Below, in pieces: positions 21,969 to 39,810 of a DNA stretch of 64,000 nucleotides. The position numbers and the translations under genes were made by a program. Within the stretch, counting starts at the first letter, position 1. Each line of letters starts with the position of its first letter. Source of the stretch: Rhodobiaceae bacterium (GTDB lineage Bacteria; Pseudomonadota; Alphaproteobacteria; Rhizobiales; TMED25); assembly GCA_018651345.1 (NCBI GenBank), contig JABIEF010000073.1, positions 7,318-71,317 on the forward strand, written 5' to 3'. Below the pieces are notes generated by a model, which was not told the DNA's origin, did no database searches, and was given only the letters and a program-made list of their open reading frames with translations.

Positions 21969-23186
21969 ATGAAACAAGCGTACAGCATTATTATCGTCTT
22001 TAGCCTAGGCTATTTATTGGCCATAATATTTCGTTCTATTAATACAATAATTGCACCTAATTTAATCAACGATATTGGTTTAACAGCAGCGTCGTTGGGC
22101 CTATTGTCTTCATCTTTATTAATTGCACATGCAGCAGCACAAATACCTCTTGGTATTTATCTGGATAGCCATGGACCAAAAAAAGTGCAAATTGCACTAT
22201 TATCTCTGGCAGCAATTGGCTGTATTGCTTTTGCATTGAGCAATAATATTTATGTTATGACATTTGCTAGGATTCTAATGGGTGTTGGTTTTTCTGGCTG
22301 TTTGATGGCAGGTTTTAAAGCAGTTAGTATGTATTTGAAACCGAATAATTATGCTCTTGGTAATGGAATAATCATGGGAGCAGGCCAGATAGGTATTCTT
22401 ATCACAAGTTGGCCAACCGAAATAATTTTACAATACTTTAGCTGGCGCGGTGCATACGCTTTATTTATTATATTAATTTTTGTAATTATAATACTTACCT
22501 ACCTTTTTATACCTAATAATAGCACCACCAAAACAGACGAAACCTTAAAAGTGCAATTAAGCGGATTAAAAAAAGTTTTTGAAGATAAGGCTCTATGGCA
22601 CTTAGCCCCATTAATATGGATTACAGGTGGGGCACACATTGCCTTGCTCACACTCTGGACCGGCCCCTGGCTACATGATGTTGCTGGATTAGGAAGAGAG
22701 CAAGTTGCAACAAGTCTAACTATTATTGCATTATCTGTAATATCGGGAATTTTTCTTAGCGGATTAATTGCAAAGATATTAACTAAATATAACGTAAATA
22801 TCTTAAAAATTCTTCAATACATATTAATTGTCAATATATTCTCATTAATACCATTATTCCTTATAAATCATAAAATAGCATTTTATACTTGGATTATCTT
22901 CGCCATGACAGGACAAGGTGGGATACTTTCTTACCCTTGGATTACGGAAAGATTTGGCTTATCGTTATCTTCTAGAGCTAATACGGTGGTAAATCTTGGA
23001 ACATTCGTAGTCGCATTTTTTATACAGTATTTGATTGGTGTAATTATAGACTTATTCCCATTAACTGCCGATGGCCAATATAATCCAGATGCATATAAAA
23101 TGAGTTTCTTCTTTATCTTTACATTACAAATCTTAATTCTATTATGGTTTTTTAAAGGAAAAAAATATTTAAATTTAAATAAATAA
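21969..23186 (+). CDS. MFS transporter, substrate unknown
   Basis: About 12 hydrophobic segments; motif A-like GIYLDSHGPKK. Confidence 0.85.
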   Translation: MKQAYSIIIVFSLGYLLAIIFRSINTIIAPNLINDIGLTAASLGLLSSSLLIAHAAAQIPLGIYLDSHGPKKVQIALLSLAAIGCIAFALSNNIYVMTFARILMGVGFSGCLMAGFKAVSMYLKPNNYALGNGIIMGAGQIGILITSWPTEIILQYFSWRGAYALFIILIFVIIILTYLFIPNNSTTKTDETLKVQLSGLKKVFEDKALWHLAPLIWITGGAHIALLTLWTGPWLHDVAGLGREQVATSLTIIALSVISGIFLSGLIAKILTKYNVNILKILQYILIVNIFSLIPLFLINHKIAFYTWIIFAMTGQGGILSYPWITERFGLSLSSRANTVVNLGTFVVAFFIQYLIGVIIDLFPLTADGQYNPDAYKMSFFFIFTLQILILLWFFKGKKYLNLNK

Positions 23187-23217
23187 AGTTATAAATTACA
23201 CTGAACTGGAGACAAAA

Positions 23218-24465
23218 ATGCAAATAGAAATAATCTGTACAGGGGATGAAATACTTAGCGGGAAAATAATTAATTCAAATTTTTCGTATATGAGTCGTAA
23301 GCTAGAGGAAGTAGGATTATCTGTTGTTTGGGGAACAACAGTAGGCGACGATAGAAAAGAATTACTAGATGCATTTATATTAGCTTCAAAAAGGTCTGAC
23401 GCTGTAATAGTTAATGGTGGGCTTGGACCAACTGTAGATGATTTATCGCAAGAAATTGCAGCCGAAGCTTCTGGCATGGAATTAGAATTAAGAGAAGACT
23501 GGCTTAGTAAAATGGAAGGCTTCTTTACTATGCGCGGAAGAACTATGACAGAAAACAATAAAAAACAGGCAATGCTCCCAAAAACATCAGAATTAATTGA
23601 TAATCCCGTTGGAACAGCTTGTGGATTTGCTATAAATATCAAGAATTCTAGATTCTTTTTTACCCCAGGAGTTCCACGAGAACTCTTTAGAATGCTTGAA
23701 AATGAAATTATTCCAAGATTACTTGCTTTGTCTGGTGAAAAAGTAATTACCAAACTCAAAACCTTCCATTCTTATGGTATTGGTGAATCACGCGCTGATT
23801 CAATCTTAAATGATTCCCTTAAGCTATCTCCAGATAATATTGTAAAGCTCGGTTTCCAAGCTCATTACCCACAACTCGAAACCAAGTTATATATCAAAGC
23901 ATCATCTTTAGAGCAAATAGAAAAAAATCTTAAGCCAGTTGAAAACGATATAAGAAAAAAACTAAATAATTTTATTTTTGCTGAAGATAAAAATACACTG
24001 GAAGGCGTTATTACCAAAATATTAGAAAAAAGTAACAAAACTATAGCTATTGTAGAATTAAAAACAAACGGAGGAACCGCAGCTCGGTTATCATCAGAAG
24101 ATCCTAATGGAAAAATACTAAAGTGTGGAATATTTTCCAATAATATTGAGAATATCTATACACAGTTTGATATCCAGGAAAAGAATACTATAGATCTTAG
24201 GGGATCGGATATCATTGCATCAAGAATTAGGAATCAATTTTCTGTATCTTATGGTTTATCCATAATAATTAAAAATACTCTAGATAACGAAGCCGAAGCC
24301 TATATTTCCCTATCGGACTCAGATAATGTTACTTCAAGAATAGGGTACTTTGTTGGTGACGAGCAAAGAATTCGATTAGGTGCAGTTGAAATGGCCCTAG
24401 ATTGCCTTAGAAGATATCTACAGGATTTACCATTTAATGAAAAATCAGATTTTGAAAAACTATAA
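23218..24465 (+). CDS. cinA: CinA-family protein (intact MocF/COG1058 N-domain, degenerate PncC C-domain)
   Basis: GDEILSG...N.N, VGDD, GGLGPTVDD, NPVGTACG, PGVPREL, GIGES; C-domain lacks the AESCTGG motif. Confidence 0.8.
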   Translation: MQIEIICTGDEILSGKIINSNFSYMSRKLEEVGLSVVWGTTVGDDRKELLDAFILASKRSDAVIVNGGLGPTVDDLSQEIAAEASGMELELREDWLSKMEGFFTMRGRTMTENNKKQAMLPKTSELIDNPVGTACGFAINIKNSRFFFTPGVPRELFRMLENEIIPRLLALSGEKVITKLKTFHSYGIGESRADSILNDSLKLSPDNIVKLGFQAHYPQLETKLYIKASSLEQIEKNLKPVENDIRKKLNNFIFAEDKNTLEGVITKILEKSNKTIAIVELKTNGGTAARLSSEDPNGKILKCGIFSNNIENIYTQFDIQEKNTIDLRGSDIIASRIRNQFSVSYGLSIIIKNTLDNEAEAYISLSDSDNVTSRIGYFVGDEQRIRLGAVEMALDCLRRYLQDLPFNEKSDFEKL

Positions 24466-24474
24466 ATTTTAATT

Positions 24475-25497
24475 TTATTTAATTTTATTTAATAGTAATT
24501 CTAAATTTGATGGGTCTAGTTTTATTTCGCCACTATGTGTCATCTTCGCTATTTCAACAACTGCGTCGTTATAAGGCGTTGGAATACCTAATTTTTTTCC
24601 TTCTTCTGAAACTCTACCATTGATAAATTCTATCTCACTTCTTCTATCTTTAGCATGGTCCTGAGCTGCATGCGTACGGGCGTTAGGGCCAACATCATTA
24701 ACCATTCGCTTCATGACTAATTCAGCCGCACCTTCTCCAGCATTTCCTATTTCATCTGTTGTAAGGCCAAATAACGGTTCTATCATATGACCTAGAGCTT
24801 GTCCTACCTTAAAAGACTCTTTTCCTACACCCACAGAAAAATCAAACATACCAGGTAATTTTATAGCTTCCCAATTTTTAAGATTTAATGACGAAAAAGG
24901 ACAGGTCATTGAATTAGCTATTAACTTAGTCCATTTAGCTCCATAAATATTATCAGTAATATCACAATTTCCAACAAGTTTCATTAATGATTGAATCTCT
25001 AATAATCTTTCAGTTTTACTGCCATCTAATTCACCAACAGCAAACCATGTACCTGTAGGAACGGTATTACGTTGAACAATTCCTGGAATAAATGCTTCAC
25101 AACTTAATTCAACTACAGAACCTATTATTCTATCTCTACCAATCATTTCTGCATTTAAATCATCGTTAAATGCATTTTGTAGTCCAATTAATGTGCCAGT
25201 GTCCCTTAAATAGACGCTAGCATATTTTGCCATCCATTGCGTATCATAAGACTTAACAGCCATAAATATATAATCAAACTTTGGCTCAAAAGTGGCTAAA
25301 TCACTCAAATGGAAAGCGTTAACTTTTCTTGTTTTGTCTTCTTCTTTAGTAATAACACGCAAACCATCTGATTTAATTTTATTTATATGGTCAGCCCATT
25401 GATCAACCAATGTTATATCACATCCTGCATCAGTCATTGAAGCAGAAACACATGATCCTATACCACCGGCACCCAAGATACATATTTTTTTATTCAT
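24475..25497 (-). CDS. Ketopantoate-reductase-family (PanE/ApbA-like) oxidoreductase
   Basis: GAGGIG, AVKSYD, LQN, WTKLIAN, QD...RRSEIEFING. Confidence 0.88.
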   Translation of the reverse strand: MNKKICILGAGGIGSCVSASMTDAGCDITLVDQWADHINKIKSDGLRVITKEEDKTRKVNAFHLSDLATFEPKFDYIFMAVKSYDTQWMAKYASVYLRDTGTLIGLQNAFNDDLNAEMIGRDRIIGSVVELSCEAFIPGIVQRNTVPTGTWFAVGELDGSKTERLLEIQSLMKLVGNCDITDNIYGAKWTKLIANSMTCPFSSLNLKNWEAIKLPGMFDFSVGVGKESFKVGQALGHMIEPLFGLTTDEIGNAGEGAAELVMKRMVNDVGPNARTHAAQDHAKDRRSEIEFINGRVSEEGKKLGIPTPYNDAVVEIAKMTHSGEIKLDPSNLELLLNKIK

Positions 25498-25553
25498 GAT
25501 ATTACCTTTTTATTAAAACAACTTTACAAACAGAGTACCGCAATGCTGAAATA

Positions 25554-28313
25554 TTATTCAGCTAAGCTAATTTTAGCAGCTGAGAATTTAAATTCAGGTA
25601 TTTTTGCTGCAGGATCAAGCCTGGAACTTGTTAGCACATTGGCGGCTGCTTCTGTATAACAAAATGGAACAAACACTACTCCCTCCGGAACATCAGGGTC
25701 TTGCCTTGCATTCATTATAATTTTACCTCGACGCGTTGATATCGTAACTTTGTTACCTGGATATATATTAAATTTTTCCATATCATACTTATTTAAACAA
25801 ATAATAGGATCCGGTTCAATAGAATTTAATATGCTTGCCCTTCTAGTCATTGCCCCAGTATGCCAATGCTCTAGAAGCCGTCCAGTCGTTAGTACCATTG
25901 GATAGTCCTGATCAGGAGTCTCAGCTGGAGGAACTATGGATGTGGGGACTATTAATGCTCTACCATCTTTTGTAGGAAATTTATCACCAAATAATATATC
26001 TTCACCATCGCTATCTGGAGATAGACATGGATATGTAACAGATTCTTCTATAACCAACCTTTCCCAAGTAATATTATCCAGAGAGCCCATAATTTCAGAC
26101 ATTTCTTTAAAAATATCTTTTGGGTGAGTATACTTCCAATCAAGTCCTATATGCCTTGCCAACTCAGTTATTATATACCAATCTTCCTTTGCATTAGCTG
26201 GCGGCTTAACAACCTGCCTACCAATTTGAATTTGTCTATTCGTATTAGTATAAGTTCCCCATTTTTCTGCATGAGTTGAAGCTGGAAAAATAACATCTGC
26301 ATTCCAAGCAGTCTCAGTAAGAAATATTTCTTGAACAACAAGGAAATCAAGAGCAGCGATTGCTTTACGAGTATGCACTGTATCCGGATCTGACATTGCC
26401 GGGTTTTCACCTAGAATAAACATTGCTTTTATATTAGAGGCATGAATTTCATTAATAATTTCAACTGCAGTAAGACCAGATTCATTACTTAAATCTTTAC
26501 CCCAAAATTCTTGGTACATTTTTCTAACCAATTCATCTTGAACAGAGTTGTAGTCAGGATATACCATTGGTATGAGTCCAGCATCTGAAGCCCCTTGTAC
26601 ATTATTTTGTCCACGCAAAGGATGAAGACCTGTACCATCTTTACCAATATGTCCTGATATTAAAGCTAATGAGATCAAGCATCTAGCATTTTCAGTTCCG
26701 TGAATATGCTGTGAAATTCCCATACCCCAAAAGATAATTGATTTATCTGATTTAGCATATAACCTTGCTATATCTATGATTACAGATGCTTTTATACCGC
26801 ATATTTTTTCCATATTCTTAGGTGAAAAATCTTTTGTCTCTTCAACAAGATTGTCAAATCCTATTGTTCTATTTTTTACGAAATTAGTATCGTATAATTT
26901 TTCTTTAATAATTGTATGAATCATAGCATTTAGCAATGCTAAATCTTGCCCAGGTTTAAATTGAATGATATGTTCAGCATATTTTGCTAAACCTTGTTTT
27001 TGTCCCCTTGGATCAATCAATATTAATTTTGAACCCTTTTTTATAGCATTTTTTATATACGTAGAAGCAACGGGGTGATTTTCTGAAGGCCTTGCCCCAA
27101 TAACAATAATACAATCTGATTTGAGTGCATCAGTAAATGGAGCTGTTACAGCTGCAGAATTCAGAGATTCCATTAAAGCAAAAACAGAAGAGGCGTGACA
27201 AAGGCGAGTGCAGTGGTCTACATTATTCGATACAAAGCCTTGCCGAATTAATTTTTGGAATAAATAAGCTTCTTCATTCGAACATTTTGCAGAGCCAAAT
27301 CCAGCAATACTTTTGCCGCCATATTGATCAGATATTTTCTTTAAATTTTTAGCAGCTAAACTTAGAGCTTCTTCCCATGAGGCTTCGCGGAAATAATCTT
27401 TTATATTAGAATTATCTATCTTCAAATCAAAACTCTTAGTATTGCTATCTATTCTTATTAAAGGTGATAATAACCTGTCTGGATGAGATATATAATCAAA
27501 ACCAAATCTACCCTTTACGCATAAACGACTTTCATTTGATGGGCCATCTCTTCCATCAATTGATATTATTTTGTTACCCTTTACCTTAACGTTTGTTTGA
27601 CAACCAACTCCACAAAAAGGACACAAAGTATCTACGCTTCTATCTGGATAATGCTCCCTAACATTTGATTTGTTTAGTAAATTTGATTCCATTAATGCGC
27701 CAGTAGGGCAAACTTGAACACATTCTCCACATGAAACACATGTGGATTCACCTAATTCACTATCTAAATCAAATACAATTTTTGACTTACTTCCTCTGTA
27801 AGCCATACCAATAACATCATTCACCTGAACCTCTCTACAAGCCTGTACACACAAATTACAATTGATACAAGAATCGAGATTGACTGTAATTGCTTGGTGT
27901 GAATTATCAACAACAGGCTTGGGCGTAGTCGGGAATCTAGAGCTTACATTACCATTAATTGCAGATGCCCATTTTAATAAATTTGACTGAAGATCGTGAG
28001 CTGATGAATTTTTAGGTTGGTCTGTCATTAGTAATTCAAAGACCATACTTCTTGCTTTCTTAGACCTGGCAGAATTAGTATCAATTTCCATGCCCTCAGC
28101 TGGCTTTCTAATGCATGAGGCTACAAGATTTCTTTCACCTTTTATTTCAACCATGCAGGCTCTGCAATTACCATCTGCTTCGTATCCAGATTGCGTTGAG
28201 TAACATAAATGAGGTATATCAATATCCATCCTTTTAGATATCTCCCAAATAGATTCATCCTTAGAAGCGGTTACCTCTTGATTATTTATTTTAAATTTTA
28301 CGTACTTATTGAT
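25554..28313 (-). CDS. NAD-linked formate dehydrogenase alpha subunit (Cys-type Mo/W-bis-PGD); proposed ATC start at 28313
   Basis: IPHLC..GNCRAC 2Fe-2S domain, two ferredoxin 4Fe-4S motifs, CPFCGVGC, DHCTRLCH active site, LRGQNNVQG. The frame extends 28 codons upstream of the track's ATG (28229) to an in-frame TGA. Confidence 0.93.
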   Translation of the reverse strand: MNKYVKFKINNQEVTASKDESIWEISKRMDIDIPHLCYSTQSGYEADGNCRACMVEIKGERNLVASCIRKPAEGMEIDTNSARSKKARSMVFELLMTDQPKNSSAHDLQSNLLKWASAINGNVSSRFPTTPKPVVDNSHQAITVNLDSCINCNLCVQACREVQVNDVIGMAYRGSKSKIVFDLDSELGESTCVSCGECVQVCPTGALMESNLLNKSNVREHYPDRSVDTLCPFCGVGCQTNVKVKGNKIISIDGRDGPSNESRLCVKGRFGFDYISHPDRLLSPLIRIDSNTKSFDLKIDNSNIKDYFREASWEEALSLAAKNLKKISDQYGGKSIAGFGSAKCSNEEAYLFQKLIRQGFVSNNVDHCTRLCHASSVFALMESLNSAAVTAPFTDALKSDCIIVIGARPSENHPVASTYIKNAIKKGSKLILIDPRGQKQGLAKYAEHIIQFKPGQDLALLNAMIHTIIKEKLYDTNFVKNRTIGFDNLVEETKDFSPKNMEKICGIKASVIIDIARLYAKSDKSIIFWGMGISQHIHGTENARCLISLALISGHIGKDGTGLHPLRGQNNVQGASDAGLIPMVYPDYNSVQDELVRKMYQEFWGKDLSNESGLTAVEIINEIHASNIKAMFILGENPAMSDPDTVHTRKAIAALDFLVVQEIFLTETAWNADVIFPASTHAEKWGTYTNTNRQIQIGRQVVKPPANAKEDWYIITELARHIGLDWKYTHPKDIFKEMSEIMGSLDNITWERLVIEESVTYPCLSPDSDGEDILFGDKFPTKDGRALIVPTSIVPPAETPDQDYPMVLTTGRLLEHWHTGAMTRRASILNSIEPDPIICLNKYDMEKFNIYPGNKVTISTRRGKIIMNARQDPDVPEGVVFVPFCYTEAAANVLTSSRLDPAAKIPEFKFSAAKISLAE

Positions 28314-29976
28314 TGGTCAACTCCGGAAAATACTTAATAATAGAAAGCAGAGGATTTGGAGCTGCTTGCCCCAATCCGCATATAGACGCTTCACTCATAA
28401 CACTAGCTAAATCATTTAATAATTCTATATCCCATACTTGTTTTTTCATTAAATTTAAGGCTTTTTCTGTCCCAACGCGACAAGGGGTACATTGACCACA
28501 ACTCTCGTGCTCAAAGAAATCCATCAAATTTATTGCTATATCCTTTATATTATCAGCATCTGATAATATAACCACTGCATGGGATCCTACAAAACACCCA
28601 TATTTAGATAAATTATTAAAATCCAAAGGGATATCCGCCAAACGAGATGGAAGGATGCCCCCTGAAGCACCACCTGGAAGATATCCTGTAAATTCATGAT
28701 CTTCCAATATGCCACCCGAATATTCGTCAATTAATTGATTAGCAGTTACACCTGCAGGTACTATTTTAATACCAGGATTTCTTACTCTACCGGAAACAGA
28801 ATAAGTTCTTAAACCCTTAGAACCATTGATACCTTTATTCGCAAACCATTCGGATCCATTTTTCAATATCATAGGTATCCAATATAATGTTTCAACATTA
28901 TTAACTAAAGTTGGCTTGCCGAAGATCCCAACATCAGCAACATATGGTGGTCTATGCCTAGGAAATCCTTTTTTGCCTTCAATAGATTCAATCATTGCAG
29001 ACTCTTCACCGCAGACGTAAGATCCAGCTCCACGTTTAATTTCTATTTCTATATTCTTATTAATTCCGCTTTTTTCAAGCTCCTTTATCTCATTCTTTAA
29101 TATCTGTAATGCCGCTGGATATTCATCTCTTATGTATATGTATATTTTCTCAGCTTTAACAGTCCAAGCAGCTATCAACATTCCCTCTATGAATGAGCAT
29201 GGATTATTCTCAAGATAATATTTATCCTTAAATGTTCCAGGCTCTCCTTCATCGGCATTAACGGCCAAATATTTTGGTCCATCTTTTTTTAATAAAATTT
29301 CCCACTTAACTCCCGTTGGGAATCCAGCTCCACCTAATCCTCTAAGATTAGCATCTTTTAAAATAGATATTATCTGCTCATCTGTAATTGTGCCATTTAA
29401 ACAATTTTGGAACACAGTATACCCTGAATCTTTTACATATGCAGCGTGGTTTATATAATTAGGAATTACAAGTTTATAGTTATCGTTATTAATATGTGCG
29501 TTAACTTTTTCTTGCGTTGCTGATTCGATGTGCAGTTTATTAACCTCACAAACAGGGGCTTTGTCACACCTGCCCATGCATGGAGCCTTTACCACTCTAT
29601 AACCAGAAGCAGATGATTCCTTTAAATCATTATATAGATTTTCGCTATCAAACATATGGCACGTTACAGAATTACAAACTCTAATAGTCTGAACAGTCAA
29701 CCTGTCATCTAAATCAGAAATAATATCAAAATGAGCATAAAATGATGCAACTTCTAATGTTTCAGCCATTGGTATGCGTAACAAATCAGCTAGTGCATGC
29801 AAATTACCATAAGTAACGCAATGAAACTCATCTTGAATTAAGTGAAGATACTCTATTAAGTCCTCCCTCTTATATACAGACAACCCTAGAAAATTCGATA
29901 ACTCTTCTCTCTCAGAATCCTTTAGTAGCCGACCTTTTGTATAACCTTTTTTAGGTTTATCTTTATCGCGCATCAT
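28306..29976 (-). CDS. Formate dehydrogenase beta subunit (NuoE-NuoF fusion, Fdh1B-type)
   Basis: LIEYLHLIQD, SFYAHFD, RVC.S.TC, PCMGRCD; LRGLGGAGFPTG.KW, NADEGEPGTFKD, ESCGQCTPCR, SICGLG. Confidence 0.92.
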   Translation of the reverse strand: MMRDKDKPKKGYTKGRLLKDSEREELSNFLGLSVYKREDLIEYLHLIQDEFHCVTYGNLHALADLLRIPMAETLEVASFYAHFDIISDLDDRLTVQTIRVCNSVTCHMFDSENLYNDLKESSASGYRVVKAPCMGRCDKAPVCEVNKLHIESATQEKVNAHINNDNYKLVIPNYINHAAYVKDSGYTVFQNCLNGTITDEQIISILKDANLRGLGGAGFPTGVKWEILLKKDGPKYLAVNADEGEPGTFKDKYYLENNPCSFIEGMLIAAWTVKAEKIYIYIRDEYPAALQILKNEIKELEKSGINKNIEIEIKRGAGSYVCGEESAMIESIEGKKGFPRHRPPYVADVGIFGKPTLVNNVETLYWIPMILKNGSEWFANKGINGSKGLRTYSVSGRVRNPGIKIVPAGVTANQLIDEYSGGILEDHEFTGYLPGGASGGILPSRLADIPLDFNNLSKYGCFVGSHAVVILSDADNIKDIAINLMDFFEHESCGQCTPCRVGTEKALNLMKKQVWDIELLNDLASVMSEASICGLGQAAPNPLLSIIKYFPELTNQ

Positions 29977-30042
29977 ATTTTACATACTTTTTTTGATTAA
30001 AATTATATAAGGTCAATATAAATCTTATAAACTAAAATTTAA

Positions 30043-31719
30043 TTAAAACAAACCTTCTATATTTCCAGATATATCTAATTTTATAGATTCTGCTGCAGGC
30101 TTTCTTGGAAGACCAGGCATTGTCATTATGTCACCAGCAATAGCAACTATGAAACCTGCTCCAGCCGATAGCCTGACATCTTTTATTTCGATTTTATGCC
30201 CAATAGGTGCATTTTTTAATTTTGGATCTGTAGAAAAAGAGTATTGTGTCTTAGCCATACATATAGGGAAATGACCATAACCCAAATTCTCCCAGTCTTT
30301 TAGTTGATTGATAACTCTTGCTGAGAGAAAAACTTCAGAAGCTCTATATATATCTGCAGTTATCTTTTTAATTTTATCTACTAACAACATATCATTATCA
30401 TAAAGTAAATTAAAGTTTGAAGTGTCTTCGTCACAAATTCTAACAACTTCCTTTGCTAAGACCTCTATGCCCTCGCTTCCATCAGACCAGTGAGATGCAA
30501 CAATAACCTTGCAATCAAAATCTTTTAATCTCTTTGACACAATGTCTAATTCCGAATCTGAATCTTTAGTAAACTTATTAATAGACACAACCACCTCTAC
30601 ACCAAATTTTTTCATATTATCAATATGCTGGATTAAATTATCGCATCCCCTTTCTACAGCTCCAACATTCTCTGCCCCTAAATCATTTACTGTTACGCCA
30701 CCATGCATTTTTAATGCTCTAATCGTCGCAACAATAACAACTGCAGATGGTTGGACTCCCATACTCCTACACTTAATATCAAAGAATTTCTCAGCCCCTA
30801 AATCAGCTCCAAAGCCAGCTTCAGTAACAACATAATCTGCCATCTTTAATGCCGTATCTGTAGCAATTACAGAATTACAACCATGGGCTATATTTGCAAA
30901 AGGACCACCATGTACAAAGGCTGGGTTATTTTCTAGAGTTTGTACAATATTAGGCATAAAAGCATCCTTCAATAAAACTGCCATTGCATCATTCGCTTTT
31001 AATTGCCTTGCAGTTATAGGTTTTTTATCCCTTGTGTAAGCTACAACTATATTTCCTAACCTTTCGGTTAAATCTTCCAGATCATTTGCTAGGCAGAATA
31101 TAGCCATAACCTCTGAAGCAACCGTTATGTCAAATCCATCGTTTCTAGAAAATCCATTCGAGACACCCCCCAGAGAAGAAACTATTTCTCTAAGAGCTCT
31201 ATCGTTCATATCAACAACTCTCCTAATCACAACACGTCTTGAATCTATGTTTAAATCGTTCCCCCAATATATGTGATTGTCGACCATAGCGCACAACAAA
31301 TTATGAGCTACTCCAATTGCGTGAAAATCTCCGGTAAAATGCAAATTGATATCTTCCATTGGAATAACTTGCGCTTTACCTCCTCCGGCTGCACCGCCTT
31401 TCATGCCAAAACATGGACCAAGAGAAGGTTCTCTGATGCATATAAGCGCTTTTTTCCCTATTTTATTTAATCCGTCCCCTAAACCAACGGTTGTTGTAGT
31501 TTTTCCTTCACCTGCAGGAGTCGGTGTAATAGCGGTAACTAAAATAAGTTTACCTTTTTTATTATCCTTAATTTTTTTAATAAAATCTTCTGATATCTTT
31601 GCTTTATATTTTCCATATAAAGACAACATATCAGATTGTATTCCAATATTACTTGCTACCTCTGTAATAGGTTTTATATCGGCTTCTCTTGCTATCTCTA
31701 TATCTGTTTTAACTACCAT
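30043..31719 (-). CDS. fhs: Formate--tetrahydrofolate ligase
   Basis: [54 protein letters not shown]. Confidence 0.97.
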
Positions 31720-31743
31720 TTAATTTCTTTCGTATTTATATTA

Positions 31744-32652
31744 TTATTCAAATTTATCGCCAATTTTTATTTTATTATCTTTAATATAATCATTAGCAGA
31801 TATTTTCTCTTTATTTACCCTTAATTTTTTTATTAGTATAGAATTTTGACCTGTAGCAACTACAAAACCATCATTATTTACATTGACTATCTCTCCGCTA
31901 TTCCCAGTCAAATCTGAATGAGCAGCATCGTAGACTTTTACTTCAACACCATTTAATGTGGTCCATGCACCAGGTTGAGGGTTACTTGCCCTTATTTGAT
32001 TATATATTGAGTGAGCAGAATTATTCCAATCTATTTTTGATTCAGGCCTGCCAAACCACGATTCATAGCTTCCACTTTGTTTTTCCTGGTATAATTTTGG
32101 TGCAATACCAGTTTCAATCAATTCAATCGATTCTGCAATAGCCTCAACGCCTAGTGGAAATAACTTATTAAAATATAACGACCCTAAAGTATCATCCGAA
32201 CTAATATCACAATATTTTTGTAGCAAAATAGGGCCTGTATCTAGCCCATCATCTGGCCAAAATATCGTTATTCCAGTTTTTTTCTCACCATTATATATCG
32301 GCCAATTAATTGACGAAGGTCCTTTATGCATTGGCAATATGGAAGGATGGTATTGAATCGTGCCATATGTTGGTTCATCTAATACGGCCTTTGGAACCAT
32401 TAATAAAACATAAGCCATTATGCATAAGTCTGCTTCAAATGATTTTATCTTCTCTAATGCCTCTGGAGTTTTCCAACTTGAAGGTTGGTAAACTGGCAAA
32501 TCCTTCTCTCTTGCCAGCTCCACAAGAGGGTCAATTTTTGTATTTTCCTTATCTGGTGCCGAGCATACTGCAACAATATCTTTATTATTTTCTAATAAAT
32601 TCTCTAACACCGCTTTGCCAAAAGCTTGTTGCCCATGTAAAATAATTTTCAT
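31744..32652 (-). CDS. Stand-alone 10-formyl-THF-dependent formyltransferase/hydrolase (Fmt fold, ALDH1L1 N-domain-like)
   Basis: GQQAFG, PDK...DPL, QYHPSILP.HKG.S.INW, IFWPDDGLDTG, DT..SLY...LFP.G, PGAWT. Confidence 0.8.
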   Translation of the reverse strand: MKIILHGQQAFGKAVLENLLENNKDIVAVCSAPDKENTKIDPLVELAREKDLPVYQPSSWKTPEALEKIKSFEADLCIMAYVLLMVPKAVLDEPTYGTIQYHPSILPMHKGPSSINWPIYNGEKKTGITIFWPDDGLDTGPILLQKYCDISSDDTLGSLYFNKLFPLGVEAIAESIELIETGIAPKLYQEKQSGSYESWFGRPESKIDWNNSAHSIYNQIRASNPQPGAWTTLNGVEVKVYDAAHSDLTGNSGEIVNVNNDGFVVATGQNSILIKKLRVNKEKISANDYIKDNKIKIGDKFE

Positions 32653-32662
32653 AAAAACCTAC

Positions 32663-33919
32663 TTATTTATCGCCCAATGCACCGGAAGATTGTATTAAAT
32701 TTATTTTATCCTCATTATAACCAAGAAGGTCTTGTAATATTTCAATGTTGTGCTCACCAAGCAACGGAGACCTTTCAACGTCAACAGGGGATTCGGATAA
32801 TTTAATTGGACAACCAACTGATAAATATTTTCCTCTTTCTGGATGATCTATTTCGACAATAGTTCCAGTATCACGCAAAGATTGATCTTCAGAAATTTCT
32901 TTCATAGACAAAATTGGTCCGCATGGAATACCTTCTGGATCACATAATTCAGTAACCTCATACTTCGTTTTTGTTTTTGTCCAATCTTCTATGGTTTCAA
33001 AAATTTCAGTCAATTTATCTAATCTTGAAGCTGGCGTGCTATAACCTTTGTCATTTACCCATTCTAGTTTATTGATTAATTTACATATCTTTTCCCAAAC
33101 TGGGGCTTGAGTTATAAAATAAACATATGAATTAGGATCATTTTCCCAACCCTTACATTTTAAAATCCAACCCGGTTGACCGCCTCCAGAATCGTTTCCA
33201 GCGCGAGGAGTTGAAGTACCGAATGGGATTCCTTTTCCATATTGACTGTATTCTGTTAAAGGCCCTTTTTCCAATCGTTGTTGGTCCCTTAATTTGACAC
33301 GACAAAGATTAATTACGCCATCCTGCATAGAAGCCGAAACCTTCTGTCCTTTTTTAGTCTTCTCCCGCTGAAATAATGCGGTAACAATTCCTAACGCAAG
33401 GTGCAAACCTGTTCCAGAATCACCAATTTGTGCTCCAGTAACTAGAGGTGGCCCATCTAAGAATCCAGTTGTTGCAGCAGCTCCACCAGTACATTGAGCT
33501 ATATTTTCATAAACTTTACAATCCTCGTAAGGTCCTGGCCCAAATCCCTTTATTGAAGCAACAATAATCTTATCATTAAGTTTTTGTATATACTCCCAAG
33601 GGAAGCCCATTCTATCAAGAGCTCCTGGCGAAAAATTTTCAACCATAACATCAGATTTTGCAATAAGATCTTCTAATACCTTCTTGCCCTCGGCTGTTTT
33701 TGTGTTAAGAGTAATAGATTTTTTATTGTGATTTAACATAGTAAAATACAAGGAATCCACGTTATCAATGTCTCTTAACTGACTTCGTGTTGCATCTCCG
33801 ATTCCTGGCCGCTCTAATTTTATGACATCAGCACCAAACCAAGCTAGCAATTGTGTGCAAGTAGGTCCTGACTGTACGTGAGTAAAGTCTAATATTTTTA
33901 TACCCTGCAAAGCTTTCAT
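32663..33919 (-). CDS. frc: Formyl-CoA transferase (family III CoA-transferase)
   Basis: [34 protein letters not shown] (catalytic Asp), [10 protein letters not shown] glycine loop. Confidence 0.93.
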
Positions 33920-33940
33920 TTCTAATTACTTTCGTTAATA

Positions 33941-35674
33941 TTATTTATACATTGTTTGTGATTTTGTTCCAGGAGCGTATTCATTAGGATCAACCCATAT
34001 ATTAACAACAACAGATTTGTTTTGTTTCTTTACAAAATTTCTCGCCATTATTAAAGCGTCTGCTATCTTATCAGATTCTGTAACGTCTATTCCAAATCCA
34101 CCCCAAATATTTGGAAATACAGAAAAATCCATATCGCCTAATTTATTAGCAATATTTCCTCTTTGTTGGCCGTATTTTGATAGCTGTCCATATCTAATTT
34201 GATTCATAGATGAATTATTTCCTATTACGGCAATGTAAGGAGCACCAAATCTATCTGCTGTCTCCATATCGAAAGCTGTCATACCAAAGGATCCATCGCC
34301 ATAATAACAAAGAACTTCTTTATGAGGATCTGCTAATTTTGCAGAAATGGCAAATCCTGTACCAACACCTAAGCTTCCTAAAGCACCAGGATCCATCCAT
34401 TGTCCTGGACCTTTAGGTCTAACTGCTTGAGCAGAGATAGTAACAACATCTCCGCCATCACCAATAAATATAGTATCTTCATTCAAAAAATTATTAATCT
34501 CATAAGCTACTCGATAAGGATGAATAGGACTATTGTTAGATGTAAATAAAGGCAATAATTTTTCATACTTAACTTTTTCAAGATCTCTGAGCTTACCTAT
34601 CCACTCAGATCGTTTCTTTTTAATCTCAGTGCTGATACCATCTGGCAATAAACGGCTAATTTGTTCCAAAACAGTTCCAGGATGACCTAAAATACCAATA
34701 TCGATATCTCTATTCTTTCCTAAGGTCCCATAATTCTGATCGATCTGAATTAACTTAACGTTATCTGATATCCTTTTACCGTATCCCATTCTAAAATCAA
34801 ACGGTGTACCAACTATGATTATTACATCAGCTTCCTTAAATGCATCTGATCTCGTTCTATCGAAACAATATTGATCGTTATTATCAATCATGCCCCTACT
34901 GGCGCCGTTAGCATAGGATGGTATCATTGCTTTTGTTATAAATTCTATAGCCTCATTATGGCTCCTTGAGCTCCAAACTTGTTGCCCAAACAAGATTGCT
35001 GGCCTTTCAGCTGCTGATAATATTTCAGCAACTTTTATAATGTCCTGAGGATCACCAGAATTTTTAATTGAGGCTCTGTATGAGCCAGGATTTGGAATAA
35101 CAACCGATTCCATAGGTACTTCTTTATCCAGGACATCACGAGGAATTTCTAGATAAGACGGACCATAGGATCCGTTAAAACATTCTCTTGCTGCCATCGC
35201 AACCATATCAGCAATTCTTTCTGTTGACATCACGGTAGATGCAAATTTTGTTATAGGCTTTGCAATATCAACATGGGGTAAGTCTTGAAGGCCGCCCATC
35301 TTCCATTGGCTAAGAGCACTTTGTCCTCCAATATGCAAAACAGGACTCTCGGACCTGAAAGCAGTCGCTATTCCAGTTATTGCATTTGTAAAACCTGGAC
35401 CTGCAGTTGTAACGACGCATCCTAGCTTTCCAGTTTGCCTTGCGTATCCATCAGCAGCATGTGCTGCAGTTTGCTCATGCCTAACATCAATTATTCTTAT
35501 TCCCTCATCAATACATCCATCATATATATCTATAATATGTCCACCACATAGCGTAAAAATAGTATCGACACCTTCATTTTTTAGCGCTTTAGCAACTAAA
35601 TGTCCTCCTGAAATCATAGAGCCGTCAGTTGTTTTTTTCTTTAATATATCTTTAGTGCTAATGCCCATGTTCAA
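33941..35674 (-). CDS. ThDP-dependent enzyme of the OXC/HACL/ILVBL group (putative formyl-CoA-producing decarboxylase or lyase)
   Basis: LCGGHI, VRHEQTAAHAADG, TAGPG, DFRMGYG, MDPGALGSLGVG, ThDP motif GDGSFG...NN; directly upstream of frc. Confidence 0.8.
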   Translation of the reverse strand: MNMGISTKDILKKKTTDGSMISGGHLVAKALKNEGVDTIFTLCGGHIIDIYDGCIDEGIRIIDVRHEQTAAHAADGYARQTGKLGCVVTTAGPGFTNAITGIATAFRSESPVLHIGGQSALSQWKMGGLQDLPHVDIAKPITKFASTVMSTERIADMVAMAARECFNGSYGPSYLEIPRDVLDKEVPMESVVIPNPGSYRASIKNSGDPQDIIKVAEILSAAERPAILFGQQVWSSRSHNEAIEFITKAMIPSYANGASRGMIDNNDQYCFDRTRSDAFKEADVIIIVGTPFDFRMGYGKRISDNVKLIQIDQNYGTLGKNRDIDIGILGHPGTVLEQISRLLPDGISTEIKKKRSEWIGKLRDLEKVKYEKLLPLFTSNNSPIHPYRVAYEINNFLNEDTIFIGDGGDVVTISAQAVRPKGPGQWMDPGALGSLGVGTGFAISAKLADPHKEVLCYYGDGSFGMTAFDMETADRFGAPYIAVIGNNSSMNQIRYGQLSKYGQQRGNIANKLGDMDFSVFPNIWGGFGIDVTESDKIADALIMARNFVKKQNKSVVVNIWVDPNEYAPGTKSQTMYK

Positions 35675-35714
35675 GATCCAATACTATTAAATATTTTGAT
35701 ACAAATATGATGAA

Positions 35715-36029
35715 TTATTTTATAGGAGAGAAATTAGTTCCAACCATTATCTTATCTTCTTGAGCGGTAATCATACCAGCAATCTTTTGCCTATAAACAG
35801 CCCATTCAGGATCCGCATCTCTTTTTTCTCTAAGATTTTCAAACTCTTCCATATTTTTATATTGCCATATATGAACAACCTGATTCAACTGCCCTACCTT
35901 ACTAATTAGGTATGCAACCAATTGTAGTCCATGTTTTTGTGCAACTGGATTAGCAACAGTTTCGAATATTTCAACATATGCATTCATTTTACCCGGTTGT
36001 ATTGTATACGTTCTGTGGTCGAATATCAT
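35715..36029 (-). CDS. NIPSNAP-family protein
   Basis: RTYT..PG, GQLNQVVHIW.Y, R..RDADPEW, FSP; GGAG SD. Confidence 0.9.
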   Translation of the reverse strand: MIFDHRTYTIQPGKMNAYVEIFETVANPVAQKHGLQLVAYLISKVGQLNQVVHIWQYKNMEEFENLREKRDADPEWAVYRQKIAGMITAQEDKIMVGTNFSPIK

Positions 36030-36148
36030 TTTTCTACTCCTTGTTTAAGAATTTATTATAATAGTATTAAAACCAATATAAAAGTTTTTTATATAAGTAA
36101 AATTTATTATAGGATATTCTATCTTTATTTAGGGAGATATACACAGAA

Positions 36149-37786
36149 ATGGACTTTAATCTAAGTGGAAAACAACTTAATTTAAAAGAAAAAATAGAGG
36201 GGAAAGATGCCTATGACGCAATAGTAATTGGGTCAGGTTTTGCTGGTGTTTATATGTTGTATCAACTTAGAAAAATAGGTTTATCAGCTATTGTTTTAGA
36301 GAAAGCTTGTGGAGTTGGGGGAACTTGGTTTTGGAATAAATATCCTGGAGCGAGATGTGATACCGAAAGCCTACAATACTCATACCAATTCTCAGAAGAA
36401 TTACAGCAAGAATGGGAATGGACTGAAAAATACGCTACACAACCAGAAATCTTAAAATACATTAATCATGTGGTGGACAGATTTGATTTAAGAAAAGATA
36501 TTAAATTAGAAACAAAAATAAAAAAAATAATTTATAATGATAAAAAAGAAATATGGTCAATATATTCTACAAAAAAACAATATACAGCTCAGTTTTGTAT
36601 AATGGCAACCGGCTGTTTATCGACACCAAACAAACCTAACATACCTGGATTAGAAGAATTTAAAGGAGAAGTGTATCAGACTTCTTTATGGCCAGATAAA
36701 AAAATTTCATTTACAAATAAAAATATTGCTGTAATTGGAACAGGATCATCTGCAATGCAAGCAATTCCAATAATATCAGAAACTGCAAAAAATCTTTATG
36801 TTTTTCAGAGAACCGCAAATTATGCAGTACCTGCTCATAATAGGGAATTAAATCCAAAAGAAGTAATAAATTTTAAAAAAAATTATAAAAAAAATAGAGA
36901 AAAAGCAAAAAAATTAGCTAGTGGATTTTTAACAAATTATAATGATAAATCTGCTCTTCAGGTTTCTAAAGATGAGCTAAAAAATGAATACGATAAAAGA
37001 TGGGAGAAAGGTGGACTTGCTTTTCTTGCAGCGTTTACTGATATCACAATTGATGAGAAGGCTAATAAAACAACCTCAAACTATATTGAAAAAAAAATTC
37101 GTGAAACAGTTTCTGATAAAAAAATAGCAAAATTATTAACGCCAAATTCGATAGTTGGGTGCAAAAGATTGGTAATAGACACAGACTATTATAAAACCTT
37201 CAATAACAATAATGTTTATCTATTTAATGCGAAAAAATATCCAATTTTAAAAATTGATAAAACTCAAATTTATACTGCAGAAAATACTAAAAGTGTTGAT
37301 ATGATTATCTTAGCTACAGGTTTCGATGCAATGACGGGGGCGATGAAACAAATTGATATAGTAGGTAGAAATAATATAAGCTTGGAATCCAAATGGAAAA
37401 ATGGCCCAAAACTCTACCTTGGATTAGCAATAAACGGATTCCCTAATTTTTTTACAATAACTGGCCCAGGAAGTCCTTCTGTATTAACTAATATGGTACC
37501 TACAATTGAACAGCATGTAAATTGGATAGCTCAATGCCTTATCTATATGAAAAAAAAATCTCTATCGACGATCGAAACTACACTTGATGCTGAAAATAAG
37601 TGGGTAGCTTATAATGAAAGAACTGCAAGAAATACACTAAGATATAATTGTAAATCTTGGTATTTAGGATCAAATATAAAAGGTAAAAAAAGAATTTTTA
37701 TGCCTTTTGTTGGAGGATTACCATTATACATTAAGAAATGCGAAGAAATAGTCGCCAATGATTATGCGGGATTTGAAATAAATTAA
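36149..37786 (+). CDS. Type I Baeyer-Villiger monooxygenase (CHMO/PAMO-like)
   Basis: GSGFAG and GTGSSA Rossmann motifs, GGTWFWNKYPGARCD, fingerprint FKGEVYQTSLWP, GCKR, ATGFDA, SWYLGSN. Confidence 0.92.
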   Translation: MDFNLSGKQLNLKEKIEGKDAYDAIVIGSGFAGVYMLYQLRKIGLSAIVLEKACGVGGTWFWNKYPGARCDTESLQYSYQFSEELQQEWEWTEKYATQPEILKYINHVVDRFDLRKDIKLETKIKKIIYNDKKEIWSIYSTKKQYTAQFCIMATGCLSTPNKPNIPGLEEFKGEVYQTSLWPDKKISFTNKNIAVIGTGSSAMQAIPIISETAKNLYVFQRTANYAVPAHNRELNPKEVINFKKNYKKNREKAKKLASGFLTNYNDKSALQVSKDELKNEYDKRWEKGGLAFLAAFTDITIDEKANKTTSNYIEKKIRETVSDKKIAKLLTPNSIVGCKRLVIDTDYYKTFNNNNVYLFNAKKYPILKIDKTQIYTAENTKSVDMIILATGFDAMTGAMKQIDIVGRNNISLESKWKNGPKLYLGLAINGFPNFFTITGPGSPSVLTNMVPTIEQHVNWIAQCLIYMKKKSLSTIETTLDAENKWVAYNERTARNTLRYNCKSWYLGSNIKGKKRIFMPFVGGLPLYIKKCEEIVANDYAGFEIN

Positions 37787-37803: not shown

Positions 37804-39219
37804 ATGCAATTAAATGAATATAAATCCTATGACGCTACTGACTTAGCAAAAATAGTAAAAAATAAAGATATCCATCCTAAGGAGTTACTTGATTTAGCAA
37901 TAAGTTCAATAGAGAGCGAAGATAAAACTATTTCTGCAGTAGTCATAAAAGCTTATGACGCAGCTAATAAAACTATCGAAAACGGAATTCCTAATGGGCC
38001 ATTTGCAGGGGTTCCTTTTTTATTAAAAGATTTAAATGTATCCTATAAAGGCTTACCAACAACGTTATCCAGCAAGTTATTCCAGAGTAATATTGCAAAA
38101 CATGACAGCGGTCTGGTCAAACAATATAAAGATGCTGGATTAATAATATTAGGACTAACAAAAACTCCAGAACTAGCCTTGTCGTTAACAACCGAACCTG
38201 TATTAAATGGACCAACAAGAAATCCTTTAAATATAGAATATTCACCAGGTGGTTCATCAGGCGGATCTGCAGCAGCAATTATTGCTGGCTATGTGCCGAT
38301 GGCACATGGAACAGACGGCGGTGGGAGTATTAGAGTACCAGCTTCATTATGCGGACTCTTCGGATTGAAGCCATCTCGTGGAAGAATTTCATATTACCCT
38401 GACCTTGGAGAAGGCCTAGGTGGAATGGCTACAAGCCATTGTCTTTCAAAAAGCGTTAGAGATAGTGCAACTTTACTTGATATTTCCTCTAACATATTAC
38501 CCGGTGACCCTTATGTCGCTCCTAAAAATAATGATAAATTTTCTAAAGCCGCAGAAACAGATCCTAAGAAATTAAAAATTGCAATTTGCACAACTGATTT
38601 TGAAGGAAATAAAATTAACAATGAATCTGTTTTAAACACATTGAAAACTGGAAAGTTATGTGAAGATCTCGGTCATATCGTAGAGGAAGCGTACCCTGAT
38701 TTAAGTGACCTGCCTATATTAAAAGCATGGAAAATTCTTCCTGGAATAAATCTTTTAAACAACCTAACAAAAAGATCTGAATTTCTTGGTGTTAAAATTA
38801 AAGACACAGATGTTGAACCACTTCATTGGTCCTGGATGGAAGAAGCAAAACAATATACTGCCATTGATTACTTAAATGCAATGAATACAATGCATTTAAT
38901 AGGAAGGCGTATTGGAGATTTCCTTCAAGGGTACGATCTAATATTAACACCTACGTTAGCAAAACCAGATCTAAAACTTGGTAAAATAAAAACAGACCAT
39001 ACCGATGTTGACAAACAATTAAATTATTTATTTAAAGAATTTTCTCCTTATACGGCAGTTTTTAATCAATCGGGTGGAGCTGCGATGTCATTACCTTTAT
39101 GGACTTCAAGTAAGGGGCTGCCGATAGGAATGCATTTTGGAGGAAAGCTTGGTGATGAAGAGAAACTCATTCAGCTGGCAGGGCAATTTGAAAGATCCTA
39201 TTCATGGAATATGACTTGA
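37804..39219 (+). CDS. Amidase-signature family enzyme
   Basis: GVPFLLKDL, PGGSSGGSAAA, GTDGGGSIRVPAS (Lys-cisSer-Ser triad). Confidence 0.92.
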   Translation: MQLNEYKSYDATDLAKIVKNKDIHPKELLDLAISSIESEDKTISAVVIKAYDAANKTIENGIPNGPFAGVPFLLKDLNVSYKGLPTTLSSKLFQSNIAKHDSGLVKQYKDAGLIILGLTKTPELALSLTTEPVLNGPTRNPLNIEYSPGGSSGGSAAAIIAGYVPMAHGTDGGGSIRVPASLCGLFGLKPSRGRISYYPDLGEGLGGMATSHCLSKSVRDSATLLDISSNILPGDPYVAPKNNDKFSKAAETDPKKLKIAICTTDFEGNKINNESVLNTLKTGKLCEDLGHIVEEAYPDLSDLPILKAWKILPGINLLNNLTKRSEFLGVKIKDTDVEPLHWSWMEEAKQYTAIDYLNAMNTMHLIGRRIGDFLQGYDLILTPTLAKPDLKLGKIKTDHTDVDKQLNYLFKEFSPYTAVFNQSGGAAMSLPLWTSSKGLPIGMHFGGKLGDEEKLIQLAGQFERSYSWNMT

Positions 39220-39671: not shown

Positions 39672-39735
39672 GACGTAATTTATAAAAAACTGATAATAAA
39701 AATTTATAATATTTAAAATAAAAGGATTTAAAATA

Positions 39736-39810
39736 TGGCTGGGGCGGCAGGATTCGAACCTGCGCATGTCGAGATCAAAACCCGATGCCTTACCGCTTGG
39801 CTACGCCCCA
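39736..39810 (-). tRNA. tRNA-Gln (anticodon TTG) with encoded CCA
   Basis: TGGGGCGTAGCCAAGCGGTAAGGCATCGGGTTTTGATCTCGACATGCGCAGGTTCGAATCCTGCCGCCCCAGCCA: 75-nt cloverleaf, TTG anticodon, GGTTCGAATCC T-arm. Confidence 0.97.

Follow-up and report, generated by a model that had tools for sequence, protein, structure and literature searches.

We examined a 64,000-nucleotide stretch of a Rhodobiaceae bacterium genome (assembly GCA_018651345.1, contig JABIEF010000073.1, positions 7,318 to 71,317), hereafter the window, in which eight open reading frames (ORFs), all on the minus strand at 24475-36029, make up what we regard with moderate confidence as a catabolic operon for oxalate and formyl-coenzyme A (formyl-CoA). 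Judging from sequence and gene context, a thiamine diphosphate (ThDP) enzyme would serve in this operon as a replacement for the canonical oxalyl-CoA decarboxylase Oxc, and a stand-alone formyltransferase, here called FmtL, would link formyl-CoA to folate. From 5' to 3', the genes encode a NIPSNAP-family protein, the ThDP enzyme, the formyl-CoA:oxalate CoA-transferase Frc, FmtL, the formate--tetrahydrofolate ligase Fhs, the formate dehydrogenase (FDH) subunits FdhB and FdhA, and a PanE/ApbA-family oxidoreductase. These eight co-directional genes had been delineated in an earlier reading made from the letters alone (the sequence-only reading), whose coordinates were exact and whose eight gene labels were all upheld by both Pfam and NCBIfam scans. 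In the same 5' to 3' order, the intergenic gaps measure 40, 21, 10, 24, 66, 76, and 56 bp; that reading had put every gap below 70 bp, which is correct except for the 76-bp gap between FdhB and FdhA.

Conservation and expression of the operon

The gene arrangement is not due to chance, because its order is kept both in another genome of the same genus (n=1), which carries all eight genes at 87-98% identity, and in 11 of 11 loci fetched from a sister genus, which share the series NIPSNAP-ThDP-Frc-FmtL-Fhs-PanE-like and have no FdhBA. The conserved core is accordingly one of six genes (NIPSNAP, ThDP, Frc, FmtL, Fhs, and PanE-like), and the co-conservation presumed by the sequence-only reading is borne out. 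The operon architecture is also not peculiar to the host genome; of 301 genomes sampled from the window's order, 65 have an Oxc or its substitute together with FmtL. The window has a G+C content of 27-37%. The host genome (98.8% complete) is 1.53 Mb long and divided among 79 contigs, and near-identical contigs are present in seawater and marine metatranscriptomes from four studies, which agrees with the streamlined, marine host that had been supposed. In these RNA libraries, contigs matching at 95-100% cover parts of all eight genes, and single contigs bridge NIPSNAP-ThDP (in two studies), ThDP-Frc, and Frc-FmtL. Several bins were empty in one or more of four runs, 36093-36500 was empty in all of them, and the contigs are silent on transcript ends. 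The bridging contigs are compatible with co-transcription of the operon.

A ThDP enzyme clade in the place of canonical Oxc

The ThDP enzyme (33941-35674, minus strand; 577 aa from a TTG start) contains three TPP domains, and the database protein identical to it is 575 aa long (P0001). Databases label it 'thiamine pyrophosphate-binding protein / acetolactate synthase'. It scored 220 against the Oxc model TIGR03254 (cut-off 739.4), 241.6 against the Oxc model PRK09259 (cut-off 557), 413.6 against PRK05858 (cut-off 587), and 345.2 against NF058623, the model of the actinobacterial 2-hydroxyacyl-CoA lyase (HACL; cut-off 600), and no NCBIfam cut-off was reached by any model. Both its model scores and its catalytic residues, which are considered further below, place the enzyme outside the canonical Oxc family, in a non-canonical clade of the group that comprises HACL, oxalyl-CoA decarboxylase (OXC), and benzaldehyde lyase. 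Members of this clade are 66-73% identical to the window protein in Alpha-, Beta-, and Gammaproteobacteria, Acidobacteriota, and Longimicrobiales, and 55-59% identical in Actinomycetota.

A survey of the neighborhood of frc and this clade had been suggested by the sequence-only reading, and it proved informative: in tblastn searches with the window proteins, Frc was encoded directly downstream of the ThDP gene in 74 of 80 clade loci. At three of the six other loci, the sequence downstream of the ThDP gene is <700 bases long; L045 is without a full-length ThDP match, and L060 has neither Frc nor an Fmt-like gene downstream. The sixth, L005, belongs to a TMED61 proteobacterial metagenome-assembled genome in which the ThDP gene is followed directly by FmtL (10001-12700), and no frc was found across its 21.6-kb locus.

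Clade and canonical Oxc are nearly exclusive of each other. The sequence-only reading had noted the lack of a canonical oxc, and indeed none over cut-off was found in the whole 1.53-Mb host genome, while among clade carriers such a gene was present in 1 of 5 and 1 of 50 genomes, in a search that left out the remaining 24 loci. Across 41 Cupriavidus genomes, Frc was found in 39, canonical Oxc over cut-off in 27, and the ThDP clade in 11, with the two decarboxylase types never together (0/41); one further genome has an Oxc fragment at a contig end, and the two genomes with neither type are also without Frc. Culturable clade carriers without canonical Oxc include Cupriavidus metallidurans CH34, Phyllobacterium, and Hansschlegelia. 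Similarly, the 301 genomes of the window's order include 58 with Oxc (counted at E <= 1e-180, 55 of them over the model cut-off), 27 with the ThDP clade, and a single one with both, and each of four genera (g8, g17, g53, g75) contains both types. The clade is paired with frc in 26 of the 84 genomes of this order that are positive for an oxc-type gene. In G384, the sole genome with both, the substitute adjoins FmtL (C1:899941-904018) and the canonical Oxc gene lies on another contig (C2:408470-410137).

Gene order at other loci bears on the same point. Twelve of 19 extended FmtL loci have canonical Oxc-Frc-FmtL, which in 10 cases is followed by Fhs, and one has the substitute ThDP-Frc-FmtL; those Oxc-Frc-FmtL-Fhs loci repeat the window order with Oxc filling the ThDP slot. 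According to RefSeq annotation, the clade gene lies between oxlT and frc on two Phyllobacterium plasmids, with an ADP-forming CoA ligase gene, SucCD-like genes, and a PanE gene nearby, and a Streptomyces plasmid has the order ThDP-frc-CoA ligase-OFA transporter. Other neighbors of the clade loci include GntR/FCD (31), TctA (16), TctC (13), TctB (13), MFS (major facilitator superfamily; 16), SucC-like (16), SucD-like (12), ADP-forming acyl-CoA synthetase (15), PanE (13), FAA hydrolase (11), and glycerate kinase (5) genes, all of these counts being rough lower bounds, since longest-ORF clustering is weak at high GC and recovered the ThDP gene itself in 53 of 79 loci.

The partner of this clade, Frc, is encoded at 32663-33919 (minus strand; 418 aa). 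It scored 702.8 bits against TIGR03253, well over the equivalog cut-off of 504.2, and matched E. coli YfdW with E = 7e-169, the VQSGP, GDS, and GGGQPGW motifs being aligned; passages of PMC10192776 name Q17, D169, and G259/G260 as key residues of Frc. By these sequence measures the window Frc is a genuine formyl-CoA:oxalate CoA-transferase, and the proposal of a formyl-CoA/one-carbon (C1) module has a sound center. It is 72-77% identical to Frcs encoded beside canonical Oxc and mostly 65-76% identical to those beside the clade.

Because the clade occupies the slot of Oxc, is nearly exclusive with it, is paired with an unchanged Frc, and has oxlT and OFA neighbors, we infer that the ThDP enzyme is a replacement, second-type oxalyl-CoA decarboxylase. 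Such a pattern is what a non-orthologous replacement with conserved function should leave behind. The absence of a canonical oxc would be explained, since the clade takes its place beside frc in several phyla, and for the same reason oxalate is favored over a 2-hydroxy acid as the operon substrate. The sequence-only reading had allowed for either substrate; its oxalate option is the one that the pattern of Oxc replacement favors. We found no account of a second frc-partner decarboxylase clade in Creative Commons (CC)-licensed PMC or bioRxiv papers, and the passages shown of two oxalotrophy papers contain neither the word 'thiamine' nor a substitute decarboxylase.

FmtL and a probable link between formyl-CoA and folate

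FmtL (31744-32652, minus strand; 302 aa) consists of Formyl_trans_N and Formyl_trans_C domains, and its family is labeled methionyl-tRNA formyltransferase in databases. This label is systematically wrong. A role as the housekeeping Met-tRNA formyltransferase was considered for FmtL and rejected, as it scored 177.3 against the fmt model TIGR00460, below the cut-off of 201.5, and a separate true Fmt (264.4 bits) is encoded elsewhere in the host genome, on contig C32. A PDB search returned as its top match the hydrolase domain of 10-formyl-tetrahydrofolate (10-formyl-THF) dehydrogenase, the N-terminal domain of ALDH1L1 (4qpd, 1s3i, 2bw0), with E = 5e-62 over residues 1-254, followed more weakly by Fmt (1.6e-46) and much more weakly by HypX's N-terminal domain (6j0p; ~1e-14). 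The 'YHPS' and 'GLDTG' motifs of FmtL align to the His106/Ser108/Asp142 triad of the zebrafish and rat enzymes, and the triad is thus common to FmtL and ALDH1L1. As described in passages of PMC6802093, the ALDH1L1 domain uses its His-Ser-Asp triad to move a formyl group from 10-formyl-THF to a 4'-phosphopantetheine thiol, and the HypX domain, which has the Fmt fold, is proposed to formylate CoA likewise. FmtL differs from both in being a stand-alone protein: it has neither the carrier nor the aldehyde dehydrogenase (ALDH) domain of ALDH1L1, such that its thiol acceptor would be free CoA, and it lacks the enoyl-CoA-hydratase-like decarbonylase domain to which the HypX domain is fused. A parallel to the proposed reaction is that of LctF of Streptomyces lactacystinicus, a stand-alone Fmt-like enzyme for which passages of PMC11730586 report formation of formyl-CoA from 10-formyl-THF and CoA in vitro; LctF serves the lactacystin polyketide synthase/nonribosomal peptide synthetase pathway; FmtL, by contrast, is encoded in an operon that we assign to oxalate catabolism. 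Formyl transfer from 10-formyl-THF to CoA has therefore already been published for LctF and proposed for HypX. On the sequence evidence, FmtL most likely interconverts formyl-CoA and 10-formyl-THF, with flux possible in either direction. No FmtL-type enzyme was found described as a regular member of oxalate operons in CC-licensed PMC or bioRxiv papers.

In its genomic distribution, FmtL goes closely with frc and oxc-type genes. FmtL is carried by 70 of the 301 genomes of the window's order, and among the best 30 of these loci, 25 encode Frc directly upstream of FmtL and 21 encode Fhs directly downstream of it. An Oxc or its substitute is present in 65 of the 70 genomes (42 with Oxc only, 22 with the substitute only, and 1 with both); four of the five with neither are 61-86% complete, and the fifth (G385) is 99% complete. 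Where FmtL lies away from frc, a divergent enoyl-CoA hydratase gene adjoins it at two loci (L142:9308-11078 and L143:8558-10435), and an aldehyde dehydrogenase gene lies directly upstream at one (L150:7318-9940). Though few in number, these neighbors are reminiscent of the HypX and ALDH1L1 fusions, in which corresponding domains are joined to a formyl-transfer domain.

Proposed pathway and the fate of formate

Textbook accounts already cover the Frc/Oxc cycle as well as FDH, Fhs, and PanE2. In the pathway that we propose for the operon, Frc would transfer CoA from formyl-CoA to oxalate, yielding oxalyl-CoA and formate, and the ThDP enzyme, acting as an oxalyl-CoA decarboxylase, would release CO2 and regenerate formyl-CoA. 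FdhBA could then oxidize the formate to CO2, using NAD+, or Fhs could attach it to tetrahydrofolate (THF). FmtL would catalyze a reversible formyl transfer between CoA and THF, and in combination with Fhs it could produce formyl-CoA from formate and ATP, thereby starting or refilling the Frc/decarboxylase cycle; the missing ligase or YfdE-type primer would therefore not be needed. Operating in the opposite sense, FmtL would deliver formyl units from CoA to the folate C1 pool at no cost in ATP. In this scheme the activities of the ThDP enzyme and FmtL are predictions, as are the flux direction and the use of oxalate as substrate, whereas the identities of the genes, the conservation of their order, the pattern of Oxc replacement, and their occurrence in RNA libraries were observed.

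The enzymes that would handle formate are well supported by their models. Fhs (30043-31719, minus strand; 558 aa) scored 900.2 against NF010030 (cut-off 652) and 881 bits against Pfam FTHFS. FdhB (28306-29976, minus strand; 556 aa) is the FDH diaphorase subunit, a fusion of NuoE-like and NuoF-like parts with 2Fe-2S_thioredx, Complex1_51K, and NADH_4Fe-4S domains, and FdhA (25554-28229, minus strand; 891 aa) is an FDH alpha subunit of the molybdopterin type with N-terminal Fe-S domains that scored 746.3 against TIGR01591 (cut-off 666.25). The FdhBA genes stand between Fhs and the PanE-like gene (25554-29976) in the window's genus only. They are a later, genus-specific insertion, because they are missing from 11 of 11 sister-genus loci (L092-L102) and an Fdh-alpha search gave no match at E <= 1e-60 in four of four near-complete sister-genus genomes. 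In the vicinity of the ThDP-frc pair, FdhA is encoded at 10 and FdhB at 9 of the 80 clade loci. Bacteria of the sister genus would consequently release or assimilate formate, rather than oxidize it via an FdhA-type FDH.

Evidence against the proposed function and alternative explanations

Several observations weigh against oxalate catabolism as the function of this operon. The ThDP enzyme matches actinobacterial HACL with a higher score than any Oxc: a PDB search placed actinobacterial HACL at the top (264.7 bits), benzaldehyde lyase and HACL/synthases at ~237-240 bits, and the Oxc chains from 235.7 down to 143.8 bits, O. formigenes being the lowest. We also compared 14 clade members and 12 canonical Oxc in an alignment, at the Oxc active-site residues Y120, E121, Y483, S553, and R555 (O. 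formigenes numbering). All 14 clade members have L for Y120, Q for E121, and T for R555; the S553 position is variable, the region of Y483 contains a 2-residue insertion that leaves the alignment there ambiguous, and the ThDP-activating Glu is retained. As stated in passages of Burgener et al. (PMC7154664), the Tyr/Glu pair at the 120/121 site sets OXC apart from HACL, which has Phe/Gln, and Tyr497/Ser568 of the M. extorquens Oxc aid protonation. The floor of the ThDP active site thus looks HACL-like, with an L/Q pair that resembles the F/Q pair of HACL. A recognizable oxalate transporter is likewise lacking, as the sequence-only reading had observed for OxlT: the best match to the OxlT model TIGR04259 in the genome scored 63.3 bits, compared with a cut-off of 335, and lies on another contig. 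The syntenic MFS gene at 21969-23186 was considered as an OxlT and rejected, having no model match at 1e-10 and being 21% identical to OxlT over 198 residues. In addition, frc is not adjacent in 5 of the 30 FmtL loci, and the energy gain in the sister genus, in which no FDH was found, is unclear. The genomes compared are mutually related, such that the counts given above overstate their independence, and the RNA contigs lack strand and ends and come from libraries that may hold DNA, leaving a single transcript unproven.

The first of these observations are also those that an enzyme of lyase type would account for. The ThDP enzyme could be a 2-hydroxyacyl-CoA lyase acting on glycolyl-, lactyl-, or another short 2-hydroxyacyl-CoA, in which case a 2-hydroxy acid would be converted to an aldehyde and formate, Frc would return the CoA of formyl-CoA to the free 2-hydroxy acid, and the PanE-like enzyme would handle the hydroxy or oxo acid. 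This agrees with the PDB ranking, with the higher score for the NCBIfam HACL model than for the Oxc models (345.2 compared with 220-241.6), with L-Q at the Oxc Y120/E121 positions as in HACL-type enzymes, with the failure to find an OxlT in the genome, and with the occurrence of PanE-like paralogs in hydroxy- or oxo-acid contexts. However, all of the scores against HACL models are under cut-off, the clade fills the Oxc slot in a near-exclusive manner, and annotated oxlT or OFA transporter genes flank it in Phyllobacterium and Streptomyces. Frcs are equally alike whether they are encoded beside Oxc or beside the clade, and no change of acceptor is visible in them. We therefore consider a lyase rather unlikely, and oxalyl-CoA decarboxylation is retained as the more likely function of the ThDP enzyme.

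The remaining alternatives depend upon the PanE-like protein (24475-25497, minus strand; 340 aa; ApbA and ApbA_C domains) and upon FmtL. The PanE-like gene closes the operon: in each of the 12 family loci it comes directly after Fhs (sister genus) or FdhA (its own genus), with 75-95% identity. The sequence-only reading had pointed to PanE2, an oxalyl-CoA reductase, as its counterpart. This assignment was not supported: the protein is 25% identical to the product of the PanE gene in the Phyllobacterium oxalate cluster and 23-28% identical to those of 16 ThDP-frc loci, and it is one of five lineage-specific paralogs, PanE2 itself not having been compared. Of its four paralogs in the host genome (C4:83469-84470, C11:13796-14809, C79:7835-8827, and C12:11404-12441; L173-L176), three share 42-43% identity with it and the fourth shares 32%. 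All four are in contexts of a sugar-acid type: GFO/MocA oxidoreductase genes adjoin three of them, enolase-superfamily genes occur close to one, and MFS or EamA transporter genes are in the vicinity of two. The host genome has eight ThDP-family genes, one of which is located 4.4 kb from the PanE paralog on contig C79.

A function of the PanE-like enzyme in glyoxylate metabolism would alter the meaning of the operon as a whole. In passages of Claassens et al. (PMC7486775), a C. necator route is proposed, with genetic support, in which glyoxylate is converted to oxalyl-CoA by ApbA2, a PanE2 homolog, and then via formyl-CoA and formate to CO2 by Oxc, Frc, and FDH. If the PanE-like enzyme had ApbA2 activity, the operon would match this route and might oxidize internal glyoxylate rather than imported oxalate, with decarboxylation by the ThDP enzyme, transfer to THF by FmtL, release of ATP and formate by Fhs in reverse, and oxidation by FdhBA. 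Such a scheme would give a role to every enzyme gene except NIPSNAP, and it fits the fixed position of the PanE-like gene in all 12 family loci, the lack of a recognized oxalate transporter, and the absence of both malate synthase and isocitrate lyase from the matches found in the 98.8%-complete genome. Against it stand the low identity to the oxalate-cluster PanE gene (PanE2 not compared) and the unrelated contexts of the paralogs. Moreover, Frc would be largely redundant, and no glyoxylate source was identified, since no GlcD scored over cut-off (two GlcD-like genes reached 283.5 and 273.5 bits compared with 567.9, one of them at window positions 47516-48967). Overall, we find this alternative improbable. 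The genome encodes FolD, as the sequence-only reading had asked to be checked; the 'assimilation' that it had envisaged is unsupported, malate synthase and isocitrate lyase not having been found, in a search that did not extend to glyA, gcl, or glyoxylate aminotransferase.

A related idea, to which we give a similarly low probability, is that the six-gene core constitutes an ATP-yielding route for two-carbon (C2) acids, in which the PanE-like enzyme would form the thioester through CoA-acylating oxidation of glyoxylate, an oxalyl-CoA decarboxylase of a new family with a HACL-type site would shorten it to formyl-CoA, FmtL would transfer the formyl group to THF, and Fhs in reverse would generate ATP by substrate-level phosphorylation. 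If this were true, streamlined marine bacteria without a glyoxylate shunt would gain energy from algal C2 acids, and FmtL would supply the connection, so far missing, that joins C1 units carried by CoA with those carried by folate in catabolism. Lastly, it is unlikely that FmtL simply hydrolyzes 10-formyl-THF, or transfers the formyl group to some other acceptor, as a partner of Fhs in folate C1 housekeeping: the naming of the ALDH1L1 N-terminal domain as a hydrolase domain, the adjacent Fhs gene, and the database label of Met-tRNA formyltransferase would favor this, but a hydrolase beside Fhs would create an ATP-wasting cycle, Frc is a steadier neighbor than Fhs (25/30 compared with 21/30), FmtL directly follows the ThDP gene at the Frc-less locus L005, 65 of 70 FmtL genomes have an Oxc-type gene, and a true Fmt is present elsewhere in the genome.

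Relation to known systems

As a proposed oxalate operon with a probable replacement decarboxylase and FmtL, the window operon resembles the Frc/Oxc systems of Oxalobacter formigenes, E. coli (yfdW-yfdU), and C. necator (PMC7486775) in its pairing of Frc with a ThDP enzyme, in the downstream FDH, and in the nearby PanE-family gene. It differs from them in that its ThDP enzyme is non-canonical, it is without OxlT, a YfdE-type primer transferase, a ligase, or a regulator, and it has additional genes for FmtL, Fhs, and NIPSNAP. Of the solved structures, that of the actinobacterial HACL (PDB 7pt1-7pt4; PMC7176365) comes nearest to the ThDP enzyme, and both proteins have the 'GxLQD' motif, yet the HACL gene of A. 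chiangmaiensis clusters with that of 2-hydroxyisobutyrate-CoA ligase (HCL) rather than with frc. PanE2/ApbA2 of M. extorquens and C. necator share with the window PanE-like protein the ApbA and ApbA_C domains and an operon with frc; the window gene differs in having lineage-specific paralogs and in resembling the PanE genes at other ThDP-frc loci at low identity only.

A second, unrecognized decarboxylase clade could also explain part of a published discrepancy. Passages of the survey in PMC10192776 report 183 frc and 13 oxc transcripts in a hydrothermal plume, and 20,981 frc and 9,997 oxc genes in isolates, and ascribe the excess of frc to its being unspecific. Because surveys of this kind use oxc and frc as markers, they may underestimate the number of marine and soil oxalate degraders. 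A transferase between formyl-CoA and 10-formyl-THF would add a step that is absent from the textbook pathway and link two C1 pools directly, and it would account for priming of the Frc cycle where a ligase is lacking. The ThDP enzyme and FmtL are in addition relevant to engineered formyl-CoA-based C1 pathways, which now depend upon HACL/OXC variants.

NIPSNAP, promoter region, and flanking genes

The first gene of the operon encodes a NIPSNAP-family small protein (35715-36029, minus strand; 104 aa; Pfam PF07978, 93.3 bits), and it is kept at the operon start in 12 of 12 same-family loci at 74-95% identity. In tblastn searches, it was not found beside the ThDP/Oxc-frc loci of other taxa. Upstream of it, the divergent intergenic region at 36030-36148, which separates the operon from a Baeyer-Villiger-type monooxygenase gene, is the sole long non-coding stretch at the 5' end and presumably contains the promoter. 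One sigma-70-like match was found there (36082-36055, minus strand), such matches not being enriched regionally: a scan of 23000-37000 returned 54 promoter-like sites, compared with 61.4 +/- 8.0 expected. The same scan yielded 10 terminator-like sites, compared with 6.4 +/- 2.6 expected, and no minus-strand terminator-like site in any intergenic gap.

The monooxygenase gene (36149-37786, plus strand) is followed by an amidase gene (37804-39219, plus strand), and either of the two is retained upstream of the operon in 10 of the 12 family loci. A monooxygenase of 48-51% identity is also encoded ~6 kb downstream of ThDP-Frc-Fhs in SAR116, Rhodospirillaceae, and Thalassobaculaceae loci (L015, L017, L032). 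Neither gene has an evident tie to oxalate. Downstream of the operon and convergent with it are a CinA-like gene, an MFS transporter gene, and an OpuA-type ABC system; neither a ligase nor a regulator is encoded among the flanking genes, as the sequence-only reading had remarked. An Rfam scan of the whole window identified only a tRNA at 39739-39810 and no riboswitch upstream of the operon. The 5' end of a DUF3429 ORF (39228-39767, minus strand) overlaps this tRNA on the same strand by 29 bases, and the true start of the ORF is probably located further downstream.

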